Source: Escherichia phage vB_EcoP_WFI101126
Length of the DNA stretch: 64,000 bases
Direction: 5' to 3' (one strand)
Sequence record: NC_070991.1
Shown here: piece by piece, positions 4,552 to 55,949 of the stretch
Numbering within the stretch: the first letter of the stretch is position 1
How the letters are laid out: the number at the start of each line of letters is the position of its first letter
Position numbers and translations under genes: made by a program
The notes under the pieces: generated by a model
Seen by the model: only the letters and a program-made list of their open reading frames with translations
Database searches by the model: none
What the model was told of the DNA's origin: nothing

Positions 4552-5562
4552 ATGGGTGCAGGTGGTTTTCGTAAGAACACAGGTCGCAACAACACCACAC
4601 TCCCGTACAACGTTGGGTTTCTCAATAATGTACAGGATACAGAAAATTATAACGTGGCTGTGTATGATGAACTACAGAAAGTAAGCACAGCTACTAATCA
4701 GATGTTCCAAGCTATAGATGAGATTCATGATGAAATTGATGTTCGTATCAAAGCTCTAAATGCGATGAATCTACAGTTTGATGAACTTGAGAATAGAATC
4801 ACTACAGAGATTGAAACTGCTATTGCAGATATTCAAACACAGATGGGTAATCTATCCACTGATGACATTTGGGATAACTCAGTACAACCACCTGTCAAGC
4901 TTGAAAGTTCTATTTCAGGGATTAAGACGAGCATTGAAGGGAATGACTTAAAGATTCAAACTGTTCAAGGCATCGTCAATGATCAAGGGGAGGAGATAGC
5001 TCTAGTCCAAACAGAACTGACTTCACAGGGGCAACAGATTACAGATGTTGATGGAAGAGTTACTACAGTACAAAACTCTCTTTCTCAATATATGAAGTTA
5101 TCCGAATATGAAGCCACTTGGGGTGTCAACTCTTCTGTAAACGGAAAATATGCTGGGGTTAAATTGACTAACAATGGAGTTAACAGCAAGTTCCAAGTAA
5201 CAGCAGATAAGTTTGTTGTTGGTAATGGAACAACAGGGAACACTCCTTTTGTTTTTGAAAATGGTAGAGCAAAGATGGAGTTTGCTGATATAAAAAATGT
5301 CAACATAACTACTGCTCAGGTCGCTAATGCTAGAATACAGTGGGCCCAAATTGATAATGTCAACATCACAAACGCACAAATTCAGAGTTTGTCCGCTGAT
5401 AAAATTACAGCTGGTTCTATGAGTGGGTCTAATTGGAGACTAACTGTTGGTGGTGATTTTGTCTTGGGTGGTACGGGTGGTTCTCAATTATGGATGAATG
5501 GAAGCAGAATGGATTTTTATGATGGAAGTGGTGTTCTCAGAATAAGAATAGGGAGTTGGTAA
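4552..5562 (+). CDS. tail fibre protein (coiled-coil shaft)
   Basis: ATG 7 nt after GGAGG; heptad-rich middle region; C-terminal repeated NVNITxAQ motifs; track ORF start at 4486 spans the terminator so 4552 preferred. Confidence 0.5.
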   Translation: MGAGGFRKNTGRNNTTLPYNVGFLNNVQDTENYNVAVYDELQKVSTATNQMFQAIDEIHDEIDVRIKALNAMNLQFDELENRITTEIETAIADIQTQMGNLSTDDIWDNSVQPPVKLESSISGIKTSIEGNDLKIQTVQGIVNDQGEEIALVQTELTSQGQQITDVDGRVTTVQNSLSQYMKLSEYEATWGVNSSVNGKYAGVKLTNNGVNSKFQVTADKFVVGNGTTGNTPFVFENGRAKMEFADIKNVNITTAQVANARIQWAQIDNVNITNAQIQSLSADKITAGSMSGSNWRLTVGGDFVLGGTGGSQLWMNGSRMDFYDGSGVLRIRIGSW

Positions 5563-7409: not shown

Positions 7410-8462
7410 ATGTCTTTATTTGGAAAATCAGCTTCTAGCAAAACCACAGTGGCTCCTTCCTCTCAGGTTGATGCCCTGCTGAAGCAGATTGTTGCTAATG
7501 CTCAGAATATGCAGAACAACGATCCGGGATTCATTTCCCAACAGCTGGCTGGGTTTAATGGCAACCAACAGGGTGCTCTGAATAATTTGGCAGCTTCTAC
7601 AACTCAGAAGCAACTAGCTGATATGTACACGCCTCGTACTCAGCAAGGGTTGGACCAACTAAACTCTCTTGCCCAACAGTATCAGGATATCATAAACGGT
7701 GGCGGTATAACTGCTGATGGTGTTAATAACTTTAATAAAGGGTTGAATAATTCAGCTCTTGCTCAAGCCACTAGTAAAGCAGCTTCCAACGTATCTCTCG
7801 GGAATGGCTCTGATTCAGGTTCTCTTCGTAGAGCTGCTGCTCAGGGTGCTGCTTTGAATGGTGCTAATACAAACCTAGCTCGAACTATCAATGGAAAGAA
7901 TATGGGAATTAATGCCCTTCAACAAGACCAAAACTTCCAGAGAGGCTTACTTGGTGCTCAGTCGGGGTTAGCTGGACAGAACCTTAATCTTGGTGCACAA
8001 GGTGTTCAGGCAACCCAACAAGCTATCCAGAATCAACTCTTGGCTGGTAATTTACAACAGCTACAAGATCAAGCTCAAGCTGACATTAATTGGCAGAATG
8101 CTATTGGCTCTAGGCAGTATGGATGGAATCAGCTTAACAACCAGCTTAATGTATTAAACAGTGTAAGTCCAATGGCTGGATATACAATTAAGAATGCCGC
8201 TCCGGGTGTTAACACAGGACAGCAGATTCTTGGTGCTGGTATTACCGGATTAGGTATTGCAGGTCGTATGGGCGCTTTCTCTCCTAACCAACAGACTCAA
8301 AATGCTTGGAGTTCCTATAACAACTCAGGTGGTCAATCTGGAATGGCTGGTCCTATGATTGGAGGTTCTAATCTCTCTCAACAGAGAAGTCAGTCTAACT
8401 GGTTATCCACAGCAGGTAGTAATATCTTAGGTGGCGTCTTAGGGGCATTCGGAGCAAACTAA
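7410..8462 (+). CDS. Gln/Asn/Gly-rich internal virion protein
   Basis: Low-complexity Q/N/G-rich protein; N-terminus paralogous to 8475..9443. Confidence 0.4.
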   Translation: MSLFGKSASSKTTVAPSSQVDALLKQIVANAQNMQNNDPGFISQQLAGFNGNQQGALNNLAASTTQKQLADMYTPRTQQGLDQLNSLAQQYQDIINGGGITADGVNNFNKGLNNSALAQATSKAASNVSLGNGSDSGSLRRAAAQGAALNGANTNLARTINGKNMGINALQQDQNFQRGLLGAQSGLAGQNLNLGAQGVQATQQAIQNQLLAGNLQQLQDQAQADINWQNAIGSRQYGWNQLNNQLNVLNSVSPMAGYTIKNAAPGVNTGQQILGAGITGLGIAGRMGAFSPNQQTQNAWSSYNNSGGQSGMAGPMIGGSNLSQQRSQSNWLSTAGSNILGGVLGAFGAN

Positions 8463-26128: not shown

Positions 26129-26413
26129 TCAACCTTTCGGGAATGGCATTAAAAATTCTACAGCAGATTTGATTTCGTTATTGATTCGTGAATCACGGTA
26201 AGAGATAAACTTACCTTTGCTGTCACGTAACATCACATGGGTTCTGGCTGTTTTGTGAGGAAGCAAAGTGATACTGGTTGGGATAGTATCAATTCCTACA
26301 GAGAATGAATTAATAGTCTTACTTTCTACTAGCAGATAAGACCAAGTACGGGGTTTCTGCTCCGGGCGGTTGGGGTATGTATCTCTAATCTGAACCATAG
26401 CTAACTTATTCAT
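26129..26413 (-). CDS. hypothetical protein, tandem paralog A (…FPKG C-terminus)
   Basis: Shares ART.V.LR...GKF.SY and C-terminal PFPKG with 26415..26669. Confidence 0.4.
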   Translation of the reverse strand: MNKLAMVQIRDTYPNRPEQKPRTWSYLLVESKTINSFSVGIDTIPTSITLLPHKTARTHVMLRDSKGKFISYRDSRINNEIKSAVEFLMPFPKG

Positions 26414-26414
26414 A

Positions 26415-26669
26415 TTAAACTCCTTTAGGGAATGGGATGAGGTTTTCTATTGCAACACGGAAAGATTTTTCTACATCTTTGTTTTTATAAGAAAGGAATT
26501 TACCATCAGCGCCACGAAGGATTACGTTAGTGCGAGCTGTATTTGGGTTTTGTTGAATCATAGAACGAATGATGTTCTCTGAACCTCTGTGTTTATTGGT
26601 GAATTTCCAACTGATAGTTTTACCGGTACGAGTTACATCAATGATATTTACAGATTTTACAATAGACAT
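26415..26669 (-). CDS. hypothetical protein, tandem paralog B
   Basis: See paralog A. Confidence 0.4.
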   Translation of the reverse strand: MSIVKSVNIIDVTRTGKTISWKFTNKHRGSENIIRSMIQQNPNTARTNVILRGADGKFLSYKNKDVEKSFRVAIENLIPFPKGV

Positions 26670-27411: not shown

Positions 27412-27660
27412 TTAAAACTCTGCTAAGTACTTAATATCAGAGGCATATACCTCATCAAAGGAAATAGGCTCTCCGTTGTAGAGGAGTTCTATTTTCAGTA
27501 TACCAGAGCATTTAGTGTCTTTAGAGTCAACTCTGATAGAGAGTTTATCAACTATCTGAGCTTTAATCTCTTCTATTACTGACTCTTGAGTATTACTCAC
27601 TCCACCCTCCCGGTGGTACAAAATCATCAGGAACGTCAATGATAGTAGGTTCTCCATCAT
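27412..27660 (-). CDS. hypothetical protein
   Basis: ORF track. Confidence 0.3.
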   Translation of the reverse strand: MMENLLSLTFLMILYHREGGVSNTQESVIEEIKAQIVDKLSIRVDSKDTKCSGILKIELLYNGEPISFDEVYASDIKYLAEF

Positions 27661-30162: not shown

Positions 30163-30814
30163 TCTCCAAAGTTTTCTTCAGAGCTGCCCACGAGATAGGG
30201 TAGAGCTTCGCCATCTCTTCGTCTACGGATTTAGCAAATACTCGAACTTCGTATTGAGCGTGAGAGGAGAGTCGCTGACGACACAACTCAAACCATCCAT
30301 ACAAAGAACCAGTCCACACCCACTCAGTGATCATCCCCTGAGGGAGTACAAATCGGGCTTGCTCTGGTGCAATAAATTCAATCAACTTGTCATATGCTGC
30401 TAGAGAAGCTTCATATGCATCGTTAATTAACATTAATGCTTCAGCTCGCTCTCCGTCGATGAGCTGAACCCCTGAACCTGCATGGAGGTCCGAAGGTCTC
30501 GCAAAAATCTCTTTAGGGATGAAGACTTCAACTGCTCCATCTTTATACCGCCGGGACATTTCGTTCCACGAGAATCCAACCTGATGCTTGCCCAGCTGTC
30601 TCGCAATTGCGATAGGTGCTTTGCATCGGAAACTGACTTGCGGGTGTCGGAATGGGGTAACATGCTTCTCTCTTGCGAGGAAGTTGATGAGACGTTCATC
30701 ACGTTCATTTAAATCACCTTCACGGGTTACGCCAAAGGAAACTCGAGCTGCGTTTACTACGCTACGATCACTTCCCATAGCTTCGATTAATGTTGCTTGT
30801 AATTGTTCATTCAT
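30149..30814 (-). CDS. thyX: flavin-dependent thymidylate synthase ThyX-like
   Basis: ThyX-like signature H.....S.NE.S.RY (HQVGFSWNEMSRRY) and AARVSFG N-terminal motif. Confidence 0.7.
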   Translation of the reverse strand: MNEQLQATLIEAMGSDRSVVNAARVSFGVTREGDLNERDERLINFLAREKHVTPFRHPQVSFRCKAPIAIARQLGKHQVGFSWNEMSRRYKDGAVEVFIPKEIFARPSDLHAGSGVQLIDGERAEALMLINDAYEASLAAYDKLIEFIAPEQARFVLPQGMITEWVWTGSLYGWFELCRQRLSSHAQYEVRVFAKSVDEEMAKLYPISWAALKKTLESGNG

Positions 30815-31498: not shown

Positions 31499-31684
31499 TT
31501 ATAGCATACAAAGAATAATAACAAGAGGTAGTGTTATAGCAAAATGTACCAGAACAACACTACCTAGCTTGATAGCTTTAACATCCTCTTCTGCTGGGTT
31601 TTCTTTAATTGCTAAATTTCGAGCTTTATATATAACAGTACCAACTATTAACGACCACACGGCCCACACAATCAGTGAAATCAT
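31499..31684 (-). CDS. small two-TM membrane protein (paralog 1)
   Basis: Two hydrophobic helices flanking charged loop. Confidence 0.35.
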   Translation of the reverse strand: MISLIVWAVWSLIVGTVIYKARNLAIKENPAEEDVKAIKLGSVVLVHFAITLPLVIILCML

Positions 31685-31693
31685 ATCAAATCC

Positions 31694-31873
31694 TTATGCA
31701 GTCAGGAGGTGAAGCAGGAATGGGATAACAACAGCTACGATAACCATGATAGTTGATGCTGTTTGAATCTCACCTTTCTTATCAGGAGTTTCTTCAATAA
31801 GCTTACCAGAAGCCCAATAAATACCACCACCAATAAAGATAGCCCAAATACCCCATACGATTGCTGATAACAT
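31694..31873 (-). CDS. small two-TM membrane protein (paralog 2)
   Basis: MLSAIVWGIW... similar to 31499..31684; below track cutoff. Confidence 0.3.
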   Translation of the reverse strand: MLSAIVWGIWAIFIGGGIYWASGKLIEETPDKKGEIQTASTIMVIVAVVIPFLLHLLTA

Positions 31874-49417: not shown

Positions 49418-49630
49418 TTAACAGGCGTAGTTACGTAGGTATACATGCCGATCTCTCAGCACCTCACCAAGAAAAGATTTGTAATCTTCTGTTATGCCAG
49501 AATAAAACTTCTCTTTAGCTTCTTCTTCGGACACTTTCCACAACTTAGAAAGTTGGTTGAACAAGATTTCCTCTGAGGAAAACAGTAGATAGGCATTCTG
49601 TATGAGTATGTCTTTCTCTTCTTGAGTCAT
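49418..49630 (-). CDS. hypothetical protein
   Basis: ORF track. Confidence 0.3.
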   Translation of the reverse strand: MTQEEKDILIQNAYLLFSSEEILFNQLSKLWKVSEEEAKEKFYSGITEDYKSFLGEVLRDRHVYLRNYAC

Positions 49631-49639
49631 AGACCACCC

Positions 49640-49885
49640 TTACATTAGAGTTAAGATGATCTCTGCTTTGGCAAACTTCTCACCAACTTCAAGAGTGTCA
49701 GAAACAGGACGAGGTTCGCCTGTGCCTAAATTAACTGCTCTGCGATATCCACCAGATAGAGGCATCATCAAATAAATGACCTGACTGTCATCATCTTTTA
49801 AAGTAAAGATGTCAGCGGTTGACAGATCTTTAACAAAGAGTTTCTTTTCTTCTTTGTTGTGAACCTTGATATGTATCGTGCTCAT
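49640..49885 (-). CDS. small beta-rich protein, multicopy family member
   Basis: L..DL...D.F...........NLGTG...P pattern shared with family. Confidence 0.4.
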   Translation of the reverse strand: MSTIHIKVHNKEEKKLFVKDLSTADIFTLKDDDSQVIYLMMPLSGGYRRAVNLGTGEPRPVSDTLEVGEKFAKAEIILTLM

Positions 49886-49887
49886 AC

Positions 49888-50139
49888 CTACTCCTGAACC
49901 ACAGACATACGAATCATCTCTACCTGATCATCAAGACTTTTAACAGATAGTACACCTGTAAAAAGGTTTACCACAGGAACCCAACCACTAGCTATACGGA
50001 TGTTACCAGAAGCATTTTCAACCCTCATATAATATTGAGGAGAAGCACTTCCGTTCTGAACTACGAAGGGGTTTCCGGGAATGATTGTTTCCAATCGTAC
50101 CGTATTATCCTTTTTCTTAGGGATGATTTTCATTAGCAA
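49888..50139 (-). CDS. small beta-rich protein, multicopy family member
   Basis: Family pattern. Confidence 0.4.
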   Translation of the reverse strand: MLMKIIPKKKDNTVRLETIIPGNPFVVQNGSASPQYYMRVENASGNIRIASGWVPVVNLFTGVLSVKSLDDQVEMIRMSVVQE

Positions 50140-50208
50140 TCACTCACTAAAAGTTCTGCCGACACAGGAATAACTTGGCACCAGCTAGACGGTGCTGTTA
50201 CGTTACCA

Positions 50209-50379
50209 TCAGATAGACGGAGAGAGTACTCGATCAGAGTTAACGGTTACATTAGGACTTTCAGATACAGTCCCTTTGACATAGAGAGTAGCACTCTCGG
50301 GGAATTTAAATACTGCTCCGCTGGGAAGGGTGTTGAGATCAACCTTGGTCACTTCTTCTTTCTTGTGAGTAATCTTCAT
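50209..50379 (-). CDS. small beta-rich protein, multicopy family member (56 aa)
   Basis: KVDLNTLPSGAVFKF; ATG overlaps stop of upstream gene (ATGA); below track cutoff. Confidence 0.35.
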   Translation of the reverse strand: MKITHKKEEVTKVDLNTLPSGAVFKFPESATLYVKGTVSESPNVTVNSDRVLSPSI

Positions 50380-50630
50380 TTAGAATCCTTAATAACGTTA
50401 GCTTCAACCTTAACAGGAATAACAGAGATGCCCTCAACGGGGCCACTTAAGTGTCCATCTTCCAGTCTGACACACACGACTCGATCTCGTGCAACTTCTA
50501 CCCAATTAGTAGATGCCGCAGTACAGACCATATGAATTGGACCGTTCTCTTCCAGCCGGAAGGTAGCGCCCTTCTTCAGAGTGTGGAGTTTCACAGTCTT
50601 GATAGTTTTGTTCAATTCGTTAACTTTCAT
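50376..50630 (-). CDS. small beta-rich protein, multicopy family member
   Basis: VKLHTLKKGATFRL... family pattern. Confidence 0.4.
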   Translation of the reverse strand: MKVNELNKTIKTVKLHTLKKGATFRLEENGPIHMVCTAASTNWVEVARDRVVCVRLEDGHLSGPVEGISVIPVKVEANVIKDSK

Positions 50631-50638
50631 ATTGATTC

Positions 50639-50950
50639 CTATTTAAGTTTCAGGCTAATATTAAGGTGCATACATGCCCTGTTCTGTACAGCAGCATAGC
50701 TTCTACCGAGCATGTCAGCCATTCTCTGAATAGGCATGAACCCAGCATTACGGATAAGGAACTGATCTTCTTCTTCAGACCACTTAACTCGGATTGAAGC
50801 TCTTGATATTCCGAACTTAGTGCAAGCTGTGTTAACAGCATTCTCCGTTACATTCATAATCTGAGCAACTTCTTTAACCGAGTACTCTTTGATTAATCTC
50901 CGAAGATTTTCAATCTGCATCGGAGTCCATATAGTTCTTCGCGCTTTCAT
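50639..50950 (-). CDS. DNA-binding protein with two GcrA-like HTH motifs
   Basis: Two repeats of W.......L..L........A......NAV (WTPMQIENLRRL...; WSEEEDQFLIRN...). Confidence 0.45.
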   Translation of the reverse strand: MKARRTIWTPMQIENLRRLIKEYSVKEVAQIMNVTENAVNTACTKFGISRASIRVKWSEEEDQFLIRNAGFMPIQRMADMLGRSYAAVQNRACMHLNISLKLK

Positions 50951-51430
50951 ATACCCTCCAATTAAAAAGAAGAAAACTATCAGGGGAGTACACTAGCTCT
51001 GGGCCACGCTGTAGACATCGGCCTACCTTCCACAGCTAATCAGCTAATGTACTCTCCTAATAGTTTATGAATAGGGGGAGGGGACGAATCCTCCCATATC
51101 CTATTAATTAATATTGCATGTAAGATCTAACAATCGGTTGCCTTTGTAGGAATAAGCGTTATGCTAATCCAGCACTAAACTCCCGCCCCCTTAGTGGGCT
51201 GGGTTATTAAAGGGTAACGCCCTTATGGGCTAGTTACATGAATGTTAGTTTGATAGGAGATCTGAAGTCCTATCTCAAAGGACTCTCGTAAGAATCCTTC
51301 ACGATATTACTTATTCAACTCTCGTCGGCTATCTCTCCAAGCCAACCAAGTGTAGATTTTCAACTCTTCAAAATCTTCTGGAGAGAATAGATATTCTTTG
51401 AAGGTGTCACTAAACCACTCTAAAAATTCT

Positions 51431-51631
51431 TCAGTCATAAATACCTCTTGCTTTATAGGTGGTACAGATTAATGTTGCATGTCTTTGGTTATACAGTTCG
51501 AAGTAACGAGGCTTGCTCCAGTCTCTGTCTCTGGTAAAGGATTGAAGAATGAAGTGTCTGTCACATCCAAGCCATTCAGAAACATCCATCGCTAGACGTA
51601 TAGGAGAACCTCTGAATTCCCTCCGCTCCAT
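51431..51631 (-). CDS. hypothetical protein
   Basis: ORF track. Confidence 0.3.
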   Translation of the reverse strand: MERREFRGSPIRLAMDVSEWLGCDRHFILQSFTRDRDWSKPRYFELYNQRHATLICTTYKARGIYD

Positions 51632-51642
51632 TTAAACCTCTC

Positions 51643-51816
51643 TTAGCAAGACTGGTCACATGGCTGATCACCACATGTTTTACAAATAACTGGTGAGTAA
51701 CTACAGGCAGGATACACTGACACACCATCCCATGTCTCACACCCACAGTCAGGACATGTGCCGTTAGATTCCATGTCATCATCGTCGTCTATTTCACCGC
51801 CACCAAAACAACTCAT
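51643..51816 (-). CDS. small Cys-rich (zinc-binding?) protein
   Basis: AAGGAG SD 6 nt before ATG; 12 Cys in 57 aa; preferred over overlapping 51576..51782. Confidence 0.4.
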   Translation of the reverse strand: MSCFGGGEIDDDDDMESNGTCPDCGCETWDGVSVYPACSYSPVICKTCGDQPCDQSC

Positions 51817-51825
51817 ACAGGCTCC

Positions 51826-52047
51826 TTAGTAAACTAAACCTATAGCCTTTGCATCGGGCTGAGGGACTACCTTTGCGCTAGGGCGATAGCCATCCACTGA
51901 ACCATTCCAAAGGTTGACACAGGTAATATACCCATCGTCTATGATGTCTGTTTTAATCCAGAAGTGTTTATCATGACCAAAGATACTTCCGTTTGGCAGC
52001 GTGGACAGTTCAGCGGTCTTAAGTGACTGCTTAGAGTCTAGTTTCAT
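51826..52047 (-). CDS. small beta-rich protein, multicopy family member
   Basis: SLKTAELSTLPNGSIF...VNLWNG...VVPQPD. Confidence 0.4.
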   Translation of the reverse strand: MKLDSKQSLKTAELSTLPNGSIFGHDKHFWIKTDIIDDGYITCVNLWNGSVDGYRPSAKVVPQPDAKAIGLVY

Positions 52048-52054
52048 AATAACC

Positions 52055-52303
52055 TCAATTATCGTAGCATGTATTCCAATACATGTAGTTAACGTACGTT
52101 CTCGGTTTGATTCCGTACATGATGAAGTGAGTCTTCTTGATCCTTTCCTTCAGCGTGTAATAAAGGCCATCACTGAAGTTACCAATCTTTACTTGGAAGC
52201 GTAAGGAGCGAGCATCCATTCGAAGCATCCACAGCATCTGATTATGACTCTGATTACTCATTGTATCGAGAAGCTTCTTTGTATTCCAATAATGAGCTGT
52301 CAT
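52055..52303 (-). CDS. hypothetical protein
   Basis: ORF track, internal Met start. Confidence 0.3.
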   Translation of the reverse strand: MTAHYWNTKKLLDTMSNQSHNQMLWMLRMDARSLRFQVKIGNFSDGLYYTLKERIKKTHFIMYGIKPRTYVNYMYWNTCYDN

Positions 52304-52304
52304 A

Positions 52305-52586
52305 TCACCACTCCTTACCGGTTGTAGTAGTAGAACCACCACACCACTGCGCATCTGACAAGGTTTTAGTTTCCTCATCTACTGCTGCACCGTTCAGGCA
52401 TGAGATACCACTGTAACGCATATCAATTTCACCAGAAGGAATCTTCTCACCTTTGTGCCAGCGAGAAACACAAACACCTTCCACTGATACTGCACACCAT
52501 CCATCAGGACGGCTCTGTACGCAGCCTGTAAGGGCTATACAGACAAGGAAGATACAGATTAAGGATATTACACCACCCCAACTCAT
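52305..52586 (-). CDS. lipoprotein
   Basis: Signal peptide with LTGC lipobox (MSWGGVISLICIFLVCIALTGC). Confidence 0.55.
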   Translation of the reverse strand: MSWGGVISLICIFLVCIALTGCVQSRPDGWCAVSVEGVCVSRWHKGEKIPSGEIDMRYSGISCLNGAAVDEETKTLSDAQWCGGSTTTTGKEW

Positions 52587-52605
52587 AACTACCTCCTATT
52601 TGATG

Positions 52606-52681
52606 TGGTGCGCCCTACAGGACTCGAACCTGTAACCAATAGCTTAGAAGGCTACTGCTCTATCCATTGAGCTAAGAGCGC
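52606..52681 (-). tRNA. tRNA-Arg (anticodon UCU), CCA encoded
   Basis: 76 nt; 7-bp acceptor stem with one G-U, D-arm GCTC/GAGC, anticodon loop CTTCTAA, T-arm ACAGG-TTCGAGT-CCTGT, 3' ACCA. Confidence 0.85.
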
Positions 52682-52689
52682 GGAATTAT

Positions 52690-52854
52690 TTAGATCATAT
52701 CTCGCTTAGTGATATGACCACATGTTTTACATCGAAGTATGTAACGAGTTCCGGTACTTTCCAGTTTACCAAACTCATTGTATGTATTTAAACTAACCGC
52801 TTTGATTGTCTCCCACTCATGGAGATGGAAGAGATATTTAAACCACTTGAACAT
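52690..52854 (-). CDS. small hypothetical protein (CxxC)
   Basis: Compact ORF adjacent to tRNA. Confidence 0.25.
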   Translation of the reverse strand: MFKWFKYLFHLHEWETIKAVSLNTYNEFGKLESTGTRYILRCKTCGHITKRDMI

Positions 52855-52856
52855 AA

Positions 52857-53090
52857 TTATACCACCTCAACGAGAGATGTTTTCCACCCAAACAGAGGTC
52901 CATTATCATTAAGATAAACAGCCCCTCCAGTCTCGAATGGAGTTCCATAAGGGAGTGCCCAAGCATACCCACGAATTTCTGGCTTATGAGTAAACCCATA
53001 CACTTCGCCGTTGCTATCAGTTGCTAAATATCTTATAGAGTTACCTATTTTAATAACTTCACCAAAATATTTAACCTCTTTAGTCTTCAT
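52857..53090 (-). CDS. small protein (paralog pair with 53098..53349)
   Basis: RYLATDSNGEVYGF vs RYIAIDKMGYVWAW. Confidence 0.35.
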   Translation of the reverse strand: MKTKEVKYFGEVIKIGNSIRYLATDSNGEVYGFTHKPEIRGYAWALPYGTPFETGGAVYLNDNGPLFGWKTSLVEVV

Positions 53091-53097
53091 ACCAACC

Positions 53098-53349
53098 TCA
53101 AGCACAAGCAGGGAGTGTGATGATTTTATACTGACCTTCAAACTCTCCAAATAAACCTAAGAATGTAGGACTGTAAGTACCAGTACAAACAAACTCATCA
53201 AACAGTTCGTTATAGCTAGGCTTAATCTTCCAAGCCCATACATAACCCATCTTGTCAATTGCAATGTAACGAGTGTTCAGAGGAACAGTCATCATCACAC
53301 CGTCAACTTCGATCACTTTAGTGATTGGTGCAGCTTGGAAGTTTTTCAT
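53098..53349 (-). CDS. small protein (paralog pair)
   Basis: See partner. Confidence 0.35.
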   Translation of the reverse strand: MKNFQAAPITKVIEVDGVMMTVPLNTRYIAIDKMGYVWAWKIKPSYNELFDEFVCTGTYSPTFLGLFGEFEGQYKIITLPACA

Positions 53350-53522
53350 ACTTTACCTTTGATAAAAATATCATTACCACAGACACAGCATGAACGAACA
53401 ACAGTAGCGCCACGCTGAACGATACGAACCTCTTCCTTAACCAGATTAACACGAGCACCACAGCAAGGAGAGTTAACATAAGAGTAACCAGCTTGCGTAT
53501 TCTTGATTGTTTGCTTAGACAT
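53346..53522 (-). CDS. small zinc-ribbon protein
   Basis: CC...n...CC.C pattern; ATG overlaps upstream stop. Confidence 0.3.
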   Translation of the reverse strand: MSKQTIKNTQAGYSYVNSPCCGARVNLVKEEVRIVQRGATVVRSCCVCGNDIFIKGKV

Positions 53523-53523
53523 T

Positions 53524-53871
53524 TTATTCGAGATCTCTCAGTTGTTCAGCCATTTGTTCGCACTTGTTGATGCAGAACGCTTCTGTTCTTGGAACCCCGT
53601 TAGGGTTGAACCGTGTCTTATCACCTGCATGGGCACAATCAAATCCGATTGTATCTAAACCACCCATCTCTTCAAGGGTATCTTGCCACGTGACACCACC
53701 ATGAACGTTCACATAACAAACAACCTTTTCCTCTCCATTATATCCGGTGAAGTTTTTATGTTTCAAACTATCTGGTAACTCTACATACCCACATAAGTGG
53801 GAATTGTTCATGTGCATAATCACAGCACGAAGGCCCGATTTAGTTTCCCAACTTTTAACTATGCGTCTCAT
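53524..53871 (-). CDS. hypothetical protein
   Basis: ORF track; conserved-looking HGGVTW...IGFDCAHAGD. Confidence 0.35.
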   Translation of the reverse strand: MRRIVKSWETKSGLRAVIMHMNNSHLCGYVELPDSLKHKNFTGYNGEEKVVCYVNVHGGVTWQDTLEEMGGLDTIGFDCAHAGDKTRFNPNGVPRTEAFCINKCEQMAEQLRDLE

Positions 53872-53913
53872 ATAAGCACCTCTTGTTAGTTTAAGTAAGA
53901 GTTGTCCCTTAAT

Positions 53914-53943
53914 TAAAACAACAAAGGCCGCCCGAAGGCAGCC
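53914..53943 (-). terminator. intrinsic terminator (conserved GCCGCCCGAAGGCAGC hairpin)
   Basis: Near-identical to hairpin at 23103; T-rich tract on - strand. Confidence 0.45.
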
Positions 53944-53948
53944 TCTCT

Positions 53949-54158
53949 TTATTGACTAACACCACGAATCAGATGATTCTGTAGCATTTCGTCTTCTGCA
54001 TTATATAGGAATGCAAACATCAACTCCTTAGCCACATCTCTTGAGCAATTAAGACACTTAGAGATTTGCGTTAGTTGCATGTTGCGTTCAGTGTGTTCCA
54101 TCAAGGCAATGCGAATGATCTCTCGCATACCTATCACATGGGTTGTCTTAACCGGCAT
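53949..54158 (-). CDS. hypothetical protein (possible HTH)
   Basis: ORF track, internal Met start. Confidence 0.3.
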   Translation of the reverse strand: MPVKTTHVIGMREIIRIALMEHTERNMQLTQISKCLNCSRDVAKELMFAFLYNAEDEMLQNHLIRGVSQ

Positions 54159-54288
54159 AGGTCCAATTTCCTTGCTTGTTACGGATGGCTGACATTGCAT
54201 GAAGCCAGAAGCCTTCCAGTTTCAGAGCACCATTAGCTACTACATCCATACGTTCAGGGCGGTTCATACGTTTGGTTGATACTTTCAT
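54148..54288 (-). CDS. small hypothetical protein
   Basis: 46 aa ORF; stop overlaps next start. Confidence 0.2.
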   Translation of the reverse strand: MKVSTKRMNRPERMDVVANGALKLEGFWLHAMSAIRNKQGNWTYAG

Positions 54289-54515
54289 ACCTATCTCTCT
54301 TTGTTAGTGGAGGCATTATTGCCAGTTGATATAAGGGATAGCCCTAGTCAGTAGGCTAATCCTGACCGCGTACTCATTGCCGACCTTCTCTGCCTAAGAG
54401 TTCAGGTTCTAGAGCTATCTCTTATTCCAACTGGTGAAGACTCCCTACCCCTAGGAAGTCTCCTGAATCCCAAACCAATACGTACCCCTACATATCGGAA
54501 AGTCTTTCGAAAATT

Positions 54516-54640
54516 AACAGGTTTTAGTCTAACACCGGATGTTCGAGCAAGCTCTCCCTAGCGGTGTGGCATATGCCTGAATTAATAAGTTAATGAGGAA
54601 CACCCTCACATAGCCCTCTGATAAACACAAGAGCTATAAG
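54516..54640. repeat. conserved intergenic element, copy B
   Basis: See copy A; hairpin GAGCaaGCTC here versus GAGGattgttCCTC in copy A. Confidence 0.6.
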
Positions 54641-54646
54641 TCGGTG

Positions 54647-54958
54647 TTACTTAACTGCTTCCATCATCTTACGAACGTTAGCCACACCTTTCTGAATCAA
54701 AGGCAGGAACTCATCACCCAAACTAGAAGATAGAAGACTCAAACTTCCCGTCTTAATGCCACGACATGCTGACTCTACTTCTTCCGGCAACAATGTCATA
54801 TTAAACCACGGAGATTTAATCTCTACTGTAAATCCGGGGTTGTACCGGCTCTCGCTATGATTAAACTCCAGATAAGTGACACCGGAGCAGTGTTTCATTT
54901 GAGCACGAATTGTTACAGTGGGCTTACACATCACAAAAGAAGAAACAGACATAATCAC
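54647..54958 (-). CDS. hypothetical protein
   Basis: ORF track. Confidence 0.35.
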   Translation of the reverse strand: MIMSVSSFVMCKPTVTIRAQMKHCSGVTYLEFNHSESRYNPGFTVEIKSPWFNMTLLPEEVESACRGIKTGSLSLLSSSLGDEFLPLIQKGVANVRKMMEAVK

Positions 54959-54963
54959 TTACC

Positions 54964-55182
54964 TTACTTTTGAGTCACATGTAGATCAGGGCGAGGTGTA
55001 ACAGTAGTGCCGCCCTTAAAAAGACCAACATAACCAGTACGAAGATTGGCTGCTTTATGTGAACCATTATTTGCTACCTCTTCAAGCAGCAACCAGAACC
55101 GGCTATCATAAAAGAAAACCGACCCACTTTCTAGATCACATATTTTTGAAAACTTAAGAGGTTTACCTTCATTGATTTCCAT
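54964..55182 (-). CDS. small beta-rich protein, multicopy family member
   Basis: PLKFSKICDLESGSVFF...AANLRTG. Confidence 0.4.
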   Translation of the reverse strand: MEINEGKPLKFSKICDLESGSVFFYDSRFWLLLEEVANNGSHKAANLRTGYVGLFKGGTTVTPRPDLHVTQK

Positions 55183-55437
55183 TTACTTACCCTTGTTGGT
55201 AATCACTGCATCAGGAATAAGGACTACAGGAATATCTGAAGCGAGCTTCATAACCTGATTGATGTTTAAATTTAGCACCACACAACCGGCACTAGGCTTA
55301 GCTTCGGTTACATGTGGAGTGAAGAGTTGCACAACCATGTAATAACTTATACCGGTGTTTTTAACTTGGAATACATCACCCAGTTTCAGATCACTCAACT
55401 TAAGTTCTGGATTCTTCCACTCAAGATCAATCTTCAT
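55183..55437 (-). CDS. small beta-rich protein, multicopy family member
   Basis: LKLSDLKLGDVFQV...VVLNLNINQV...VVLIPD. Confidence 0.4.
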   Translation of the reverse strand: MKIDLEWKNPELKLSDLKLGDVFQVKNTGISYYMVVQLFTPHVTEAKPSAGCVVLNLNINQVMKLASDIPVVLIPDAVITNKGK

Positions 55438-55633
55438 CTTTAACCTCTACGTTGGTTATGTGGAGATCATTACGAACTTGGCAGACTTCATCACGCTTAA
55501 TAGGGATGAGTTTTCCAGTGACCACATCAACGCAGTTCACATAATTGTCTGCATATAAAGAATCGGTTCGAATATAAAGGAACCCTTTAGACTCAAAGAG
55601 AACCCCCGGCTTCATGTTATTTAAGCGAAGCAT
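55427..55633 (-). CDS. small beta-rich protein, multicopy family member
   Basis: MLRLNNMKPGVLFESKGFLYIRTD. Confidence 0.35.
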   Translation of the reverse strand: MLRLNNMKPGVLFESKGFLYIRTDSLYADNYVNCVDVVTGKLIPIKRDEVCQVRNDLHITNVEVKDED

Positions 55634-55652
55634 TGTATGGTTAGGTTTAATA

Positions 55653-55949
55653 TTAACCTTCACTGTTAATCTCCTGCTGCTTAGCAATAGCCACTCGCAA
55701 ATCTTCATTAGCACGAGTGAGGCGCAATACTTCATGATTGAGGCTCTGAAGACGCTTGTTTCTGTCTTCAACTTGCATAATAAGATCGTTAAGTGTTACT
55801 TTAACTTTCTCATTATACATCTCATCCACTCGGACTAGAGATTTATACATTCTTTCCCAGCTTGCTGCTTTGTTTCTGAGAACAATAAATCCTATAACGC
55901 TGATAGTTAAACAGAGTACAAAAAGGAATTTATATACTTCTAAAGTCAT
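55653..55949 (-). CDS. membrane-anchored coiled-coil protein
   Basis: N-terminal TM helix then heptad-rich region. Confidence 0.35.
   Translation of the reverse strand: MTLEVYKFLFVLCLTISVIGFIVLRNKAASWERMYKSLVRVDEMYNEKVKVTLNDLIMQVEDRNKRLQSLNHEVLRLTRANEDLRVAIAKQQEINSEG

Follow-up and report, generated by a model that had tools for sequence, protein, structure and literature searches.

The 64,000-nucleotide stretch of Escherichia phage vB_EcoP_WFI101126 analysed in this study (sequence record NC_070991.1, hereafter the window) contains a set of small genes, referred to here as o1 to o8, that very probably represent eight anciently diverged paralogues, one of them broken, of a stand-alone SH3-like barrel of about 75 amino acids in the early block of a phiEco32-like Kuravirus. 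The function favoured here, tentatively, is stoichiometric binding without enzymatic activity, the most probable partners being host proteins involved in takeover or counter-defence. An earlier note, made from the letters of this DNA, had described eight open reading frames (ORFs) as a multigene family of small beta-rich early proteins with a shared pattern of motifs. All eight ORFs exist and all lie on the minus strand. The family itself was borne out by profile ranking, shuffle controls, PHROG cross-matches and hhalign comparison, and the motifs described correspond to conserved columns of the alignment (L-x-x-L-x-x-G-x-x-F, a Tyr strand, VNLxTG and V..P).

The eight paralogues share 17-33% identity with each other, and pairwise BLASTP was significant only for o5 with o6 (E = 1e-10), o5 with o8 (1e-5) and o4 with o5 (1e-3). 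Pairwise BLASTP alone would therefore reject most of the family, and profiles were needed. When a hidden Markov model (HMM) built from o5, o6 and o8 only was searched against the 403 six-frame ORFs of at least 40 amino acids in the window, the other five named ORFs took ranks 4 to 8, and iteration of the search converged on the eight and recruited nothing else in the window. Leave-one-out HMMs built from window sequences only were then compared with 1000 shuffles per paralogue. The leave-one-out score was reached by none of the 1000 shuffles for seven paralogues and by one of 1000 for o1, which argues that the similarity is not compositional; the alignment check proposed along with the earlier note, whether the resemblance goes beyond composition, thus came out in favour of the family. 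A combined HMM that includes seven window members and an o3 orthologue found all eight at E values of 6e-10 to 1.5e-23, and the next window ORF scored 0.77, so the original count of at least eight can be narrowed to exactly eight in the window.

Comparison with phage protein families gave the same picture. Each paralogue matches its own PHROG at 1e-14 to 1e-44 and several others weakly. Individual matches include those of o1 to phrog_12612 (1.5e-36), o2 to phrog_7431 (2.5e-31), o4 to phrog_7832 (3.9e-26), o6 to phrog_6570 (9.7e-17) and o7 to phrog_9955 (3.3e-36); phrog_16423 matches residues 37-114 of the 114-amino-acid ORF called mechanically for o8, and o3 as read matches phrog_7832 at profile positions 1-47 of 77 only. 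The six PHROG families that hold the eight cross-match one another, and 50 distant relatives each match most of these PHROGs, bridging all of them. The PHROG of o1 is matched by 11 of these 50 (best E 1.2e-7), and hhalign of the o1 orthogroup profile against the distant set without o1 gave a probability of 96.3% (E = 1.8e-9). One could still argue from the many non-significant pairwise BLASTP comparisons that the eight are not a family, and that their similarity is due to composition or chance or that the ORFs are non-coding. This is vanishingly improbable. Chance is contradicted by the HMM ranking, the shuffle controls, hhalign, the PHROG bridging and the matching predicted folds described below, and non-coding ORFs by ratios of non-synonymous to synonymous substitution (dN/dS) far below 1 and by Shine-Dalgarno (SD) motifs; together these tests refute both versions.

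The AlphaFold2 model of o5, from a 29-sequence alignment, is a five-strand small barrel (predicted local distance difference test score, pLDDT, 78.9). The model of o1, from a 136-sequence alignment (pLDDT 88.9, predicted template modelling score 0.77), has the same core together with long N- and C-terminal strands that are paired. An SH3-like beta-barrel is thus the predicted fold common to the most divergent members. The description of the proteins as beta-rich agrees with these all-beta models, and the folds predicted for o1 and o5 are not unrelated. Both models retrieve the same generic structural neighbours, namely the uL2 C-terminal domain, EF-P domain I, Tudor, KOW, FeoA/DtxR-SH3 and VapX. 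When PDB sequences were searched with the family profile, no match was better than E 1.1.

Column conservation was taken over 126 non-o1 sequences. The conserved columns are those of the hydrophobic core, two glycines (97-99%), an invariant Phe and the Val/Leu of the VNLxTG hairpin, and no conserved polar residue that would suggest catalysis was found among these sequences. The isoelectric points (pI) of the window paralogues range from 5.7 to 9.2, with o2 and o4 mildly basic (9.1-9.2), and the distant set of 50 has a median pI of 5.2, with 35 of the 50 below 6 and two above 8. None of the eight proteins has a transmembrane segment, the maximum 19-residue Kyte-Doolittle mean being 0.40-1.46. 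Superinfection exclusion, one of the functions suggested in the earlier note, is usually the work of membrane proteins, and with no hydrophobic segment (all maxima below 1.5) the classical membrane kind is unlikely here.

The gene models, with some revision, are given in Table 1. An SD-like motif is present upstream of all eight genes. Two starts and one gene model needed correction. The mechanical ORF of o2 reaches TTG 50139, and the start at ATG 50133 gives the length of its orthologues and has an SD motif. For o8 the start is GTG 55663 and not ATG 55633, with GGAG 7 nt upstream and orthologues of 78 amino acids, and o3 is a broken gene of 82 amino acids. The o1 protein has an N-terminal extension of five residues and carries Ala in place of the near-invariant Gly. 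Several of the genes had been described as translationally coupled by ATGA overlaps. This is true of o4 and o3 only, while o8 and o7 overlap by 11 nt and o7 and o6 abut, the stop of o7 directly adjoining the start of o6. An intact o3/o2 junction would read TAATG.

Table 1. Revised gene models of the eight barrel-family members in the window; phi32 numbers are phiEco32 genes.
Gene	Position	Strand	Description
o1	49640..49885	-	81 aa, most divergent member; orthologue of phi32_95 (56% identity); AGGAG upstream
o2	49888..50133	-	81 aa, start ATG 50133; orthologue of phi32_96 (95% identity)
o3	50133..50379	-	frameshifted 82-aa member, frame stops at 50209 after 56 aa; orthologue of phi32_97
o4	50376..50630	-	84 aa; overlaps o3 start by ATGA
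o5	51826..52047	-	73 aa, most 'central' member; orthologue of phi32_104 (93% identity)
o6	54964..55182	-	72 aa; phi32_113 slot; 44-53% identical to alleles in other loci examined
o7	55183..55437	-	84 aa, longer insert between central strands; orthologue of phi32_114 (67% identity)
o8	55427..55663	-	78 aa, start GTG 55663; orthologue of phi32_115 (83% identity)

The orthologues of o3 are 82 amino acids long, and in the window the next frame, as far as 50133, still holds the C-terminus that is missing from o3 (LRLSDGNVTAPSSWCQVIPVSAELLVSDC). Compared with phage Ptacy1532, which is otherwise almost identical, the window is short of one CT unit (2 bp) in a (CT)n run near 50226/50227, and o3 is intact in both Ptacy1532 and P0083. 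Either the unit was lost very recently by slippage, or its absence is a sequencing error. In phage vB-EcoP-XT18 (OR757434) the o4 orthologue is split into pieces of 43 and 61 amino acids, which is a second decay event in the family and independent of that in o3.

The stretch from 49 to 56 kb shares 96.6% identity with Escherichia phage Ptacy1532 and, over the aligned parts, about 91% with phiEco32, and the phage is a Kuravirus, that is, a phiEco32-like podophage. The eight ORFs correspond to the phiEco32 genes phi32_95, 96, 97, (98), 104, 113, 114 and 115, each annotated as a hypothetical protein. They form three groups (o1-o4, o5 and o6-o8) in a leftward-transcribed block, and every gene in this part of the window lies on the minus strand. 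Other small hypothetical proteins are encoded next to the family genes; there is no neighbouring toxin gene and no feoB or metal-regulator context. For phiEco32-like phages, the leftward block has been described as the early class, which the sigma-70 holoenzyme of the host transcribes, and as the part of the genome that varies most and has no known function (PMC8948821, PMC4281155, PMC12276001). Four near-consensus sigma-70-like sites matching at 10-11 of 12 positions were found upstream on the minus strand of the window (63336-63309, 60886-60859, 60683-60655 and 60051-60023), and they fit the one-plus-three layout of the early promoters of SU10 and phiEco32. The claim that the proteins are early holds for the block in phiEco32 and SU10 (PMC8948821, PMC4281155); in this phage early expression of the eight genes is expected from synteny with phi32_95-115.

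Gene-wide dN/dS values, computed against orthologues in phages Paul, phiEco32 and KBNP1711-like contigs, were 0.04-0.32 for every member and similar to those of neighbouring genes (for o1, 0.11-0.20; for o2, 0.04-0.24; for o4, 0.05 against phage Paul; for o6, 0.28-0.32 with dS above 1.3), which indicates purifying selection. Three members occur as divergent alleles in genomes that are otherwise more than 90% identical, with amino acid identities of 56% for o1, 47-50% for o6 and 67-70% for o7. Because these divergent versions also have saturated dS (1.2-1.8), they look like old alleles exchanged by recombination and not the result of fast positive selection, which is unsupported as a source of this divergence with gene-wide dN/dS at most 0.32. 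The duplications themselves are ancient and older than the genus, given the low identity between paralogues.

Repertoires were compared over eight loci, the window and seven related Kuravirus loci. The family HMM found 6-10 members per related locus and eight in the window. A search for related loci that used the neighbouring regulator as query gave four viral contigs only. The slots of o1, o2, o5, o7 and o8 are filled in all eight loci and form the core, and that of o6 is filled in all but phage Paul. The variable slots are those of o3, o4, the phi32_98 type, the phi32_109 type and some others with about 30% identity to any reference; in phiEco32 the o4 slot holds a phi32_98-type gene. Two weaker members in phiEco32, phi32_109 (8053..8277 of the phiEco32 locus) and phi32_98 (5165..5395), have C-(V/I)-(R/N)-N-P instead of VNLxTG, a subtype that is absent from the window. 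The variable slots, the broken o3 and the split o4 of XT18 indicate that the gene set is accessory and in part dispensable. The diversifying function suggested in the earlier note is plausible for the repertoire, with its 6-10 members, slot replacement and two independent broken copies; the genes themselves are under gene-wide purifying selection.

The family extends well beyond Kuraviruses. An exhaustive profile search over 1.84 billion representatives, clustered at 50% identity, gave 1,939 clusters at E <=1e-3. The best 150 matches were almost all full-length proteins of 67-92 amino acids, and 14 of these 150 were two-domain fusions. A second homologue search (127 sequences) added little beyond a gut-phage subgroup of 88-91 amino acids. 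Members were found in rV5-like Klebsiella and Proteus myophages, and human-gut phage contigs with a guanine-plus-cytosine (GC) content of 33% carry two or three members side by side. Matches to the fold of the o5 model in BFVD come from many groups of lytic phages and include uncharacterised proteins of Erwinia phage Cronus, Yersinia phage fHe-Yen3-01, Pseudomonas phage PaP3 (ORF.65) and Vibrio phages. Since PaP3 ORF.65 is a fold match, PaP3 gp70.1, an RpoS-binding early protein, was also considered; it has 131 amino acids and no stated relation to the barrel family, and was set aside on its description. In phage N4, gp21 (YP_950499.1, 74 amino acids) was found by the family HMM at E 4.6e-16 and by Foldseek with the o5 model at E 6e-5, and has the same length and motif pattern, but N4 has one copy in the 16 kb examined where the window phage has eight. 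These comparisons suggest that PHROGs 6570, 7832, 7431, 8365, 16423, 9955 and 12612 and N4 gp21 are one superfamily; they establish membership and give no mechanism.

No Pfam or NCBIfam model matches the family, and searches of Pfam, NCBIfam and PDB sequences found no match to a known anti-defence protein family, these being general searches and not searches with a dedicated anti-defence library. FeoA (PF04023) gave no Pfam match for the eight proteins at E <=1 or for the 50 distant members at E <=0.1, and FeoA and the C-terminal SH3-like domain of DtxR/IdeR/MntR lack the paired N- and C-terminal strands that are specific to the barrel family. There was likewise no Pfam or NCBIfam match to KOW, the uL2 C-terminal domain or EF-P domain I, and no aromatic cage or KOW motif among the conserved columns; Tudor, KOW, uL2-C and EF-P domain I show no sequence similarity to the family and are domains of larger RNA- or histone-binding proteins, whereas the window barrels are stand-alone phage proteins. 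The VapX antitoxin (PDB 6zn8 chain F) had no significant sequence match to the family, and the window genes have no adjacent toxin (VapD). Among large multi-repeat matches, only one protein survived profile-profile testing, a SprT-like protein of a Tenacibaculum metagenome-assembled genome (MFV0249145.1, 478 amino acids), in which five repeats at the C-terminus share homology with the core of the barrel (hhalign against the family profile: 97.2%, E 4.4e-11, 49 columns). It differs from the phage proteins in being cellular, fused to a metalloprotease and strongly basic, and in lacking the terminal MKI.../...ELVV strands of the barrel family. Other long multi-repeat matches (cadherin, NHL and Ig-like proteins, and proteins of 1,900-3,200 amino acids) were spurious sums of sub-threshold stretches. 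The searchable literature contained no description of the family, its paralogy or the superfamily, nor of any function.

The binding role favoured here is suggested by a conserved scaffold with a variable surface, the lack of catalytic residues, the neutral or acidic charge and the cytosolic location, and also by the position in the early block, the variable repertoire with allele exchange and decay, and the recurrence of tandem arrays and two-domain fusions. In the model proposed, each copy would be a binding module with no enzymatic activity, expressed early from promoters for the host sigma-70. Each would have a different host protein as its target, belonging either to those hit in host takeover or to a defence system, and would act on it stoichiometrically. 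The part played by conserved residues would be structural only, in a barrel with its Gly-x-x-Phe turn, Tyr strand, VNLxTG hairpin and paired strands at the two termini, and the target would be set by the variable loops and surface. The two-domain fusions found elsewhere suggest that the barrels may work as homo- or hetero-dimers, with adjacent genes possibly encoding partners, and recombination would let Kuraviruses exchange or lose the members outside a retained core. Several points weigh against this model. The PHROGs involved are all of unknown function, and no annotated homologue supplies one. The structural neighbours are similar at the level of the fold only (Z <=6.3) and many of them bind RNA or DNA, and the lone cellular fusion, with its SprT-like domain and five basic repeats, fits nucleic-acid binding at least equally well. 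The phage can do without some of the members at least, as the frameshifted copy shows, the early timing in this phage comes from synteny, and dimerisation is a Rosetta-stone argument only.

The main rival to host-protein binding is that the barrels are nucleic-acid-binding modules, like KOW, uL2, EF-P, Tudor-SN or Sso7d-like domains, and modulate transcription, translation or DNA metabolism of the host or the phage. The kind of structural neighbours retrieved points this way, as does the very basic homologous repeat (KKGEKKRTRY) that occurs five times after the protease domain of the Tenacibaculum protein. In eukaryotes, the SprT-type proteases SPRTN and Wss1 bind DNA and have DNA-protein crosslinks as their targets. 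The mildly basic o2 and o4 would fit as well, but most members are neutral or acidic, and such a charge argues against generic nucleic-acid binding; moreover, no basic or aromatic surface residue is conserved. This rival is accordingly regarded as unlikely, though it is the most serious one. A phage-internal role, in which the paralogues would be small adaptors or chaperones for replication, transcription switching or assembly and would have one another or further phage proteins as partners, is quite unlikely. It would account for the constancy of the core slots and the near-constancy of o6, for purifying selection, and for the fusions and adjacent pairs, which suggest barrel-barrel contacts. 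However, N4 and the one 16-kb region examined of the rV5-like phage Mydo each have a single copy; N4, Mydo and the gut-phage contigs have no obvious phage partner in common; a variable repertoire with pseudogenes is typical of accessory and not core genes; and the SU10 virion proteomics, as quoted, lists structural and middle products and not family proteins (PMC4281155).

A sub-case of anti-defence would be that the proteins are antitoxin-like neutralisers that mimic small SH3-like antitoxins such as VapX and block toxins or abortive-infection effectors. The fold resemblance to VapX is shared by dozens of unrelated barrels that reach the same Z, no PDB chain is matched at the sequence level and no toxin gene is adjacent, which makes this idea very doubtful. 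Host-protein binding can also be extended into a more ambitious and speculative proposal, which is improbable as it stands: a modular binder toolkit in which one robust SH3-like scaffold has been duplicated, fused and swapped time and again among lytic phages (Kuraviruses, N4-like, rV5-like and gut phages), so that each paralogue or heterodimeric neighbour pair neutralises a different defence or takeover target. If this is true, the 6-10 copies of a Kuravirus would together form, from a single fold, a repertoire for host range or anti-defence that could be likened to anti-CRISPR loci.

Other features of the region were observed alongside the family. A tRNA-Arg gene (anticodon TCT, 52606..52681, minus strand) lies between the family clusters, as it does in phiEco32 and relatives. 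Also between the clusters is a 'D5-like transcriptional regulator' (50639..50950, minus strand) that is 63% identical to the phiEco32 copy (dN/dS 0.44) and 94-96% identical in other relatives, which suggests another swapped allele. The 70-amino-acid ORF adjoining o1 (49418..49630, minus strand) has no orthologue in the Paul, phiEco32 or KBNP1711-like loci, and a 115-amino-acid ORF (53524..53871, minus strand) is absent from the phiEco32 locus only and is 96% and 84% identical in the other two (Paul and KBNP1711-like). These two ORFs reflect local mosaicism of the early region. BLASTP also found three more pairs of small paralogous ORFs in the window, all on the minus strand and unrelated to the barrel family (31499..31873; 26129..26669; and 27412..27660 with 30433..30708; E values of 6e-8, 5e-12 and 6e-5, respectively); two of these pairs are adjacent.

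Small early phage genes are the usual place of host-takeover and anti-defence proteins, and most of them are unclassified. The genes described here were already known as hypothetical proteins binned into PHROGs; what is new is their paralogy and the superfamily, within a very common fold and genomic niche. On present evidence the family is well defined and would be a reasonable choice for screens of anti-defence or host takeover, and it offers no new mechanism and would not surprise a specialist. The superfamily, which has no Pfam, NCBIfam or PDB entry, brings together N4 gp21, seven or more 'unknown' PHROGs and some 1,900 metagenomic clusters, and merging them would better the annotation of many phage genomes. 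Kuraviruses grow readily and have representatives in the BASEL collection, and their 6-10 copies, with natural knock-outs and allele swaps, make them a tractable system for finding what this scaffold binds.

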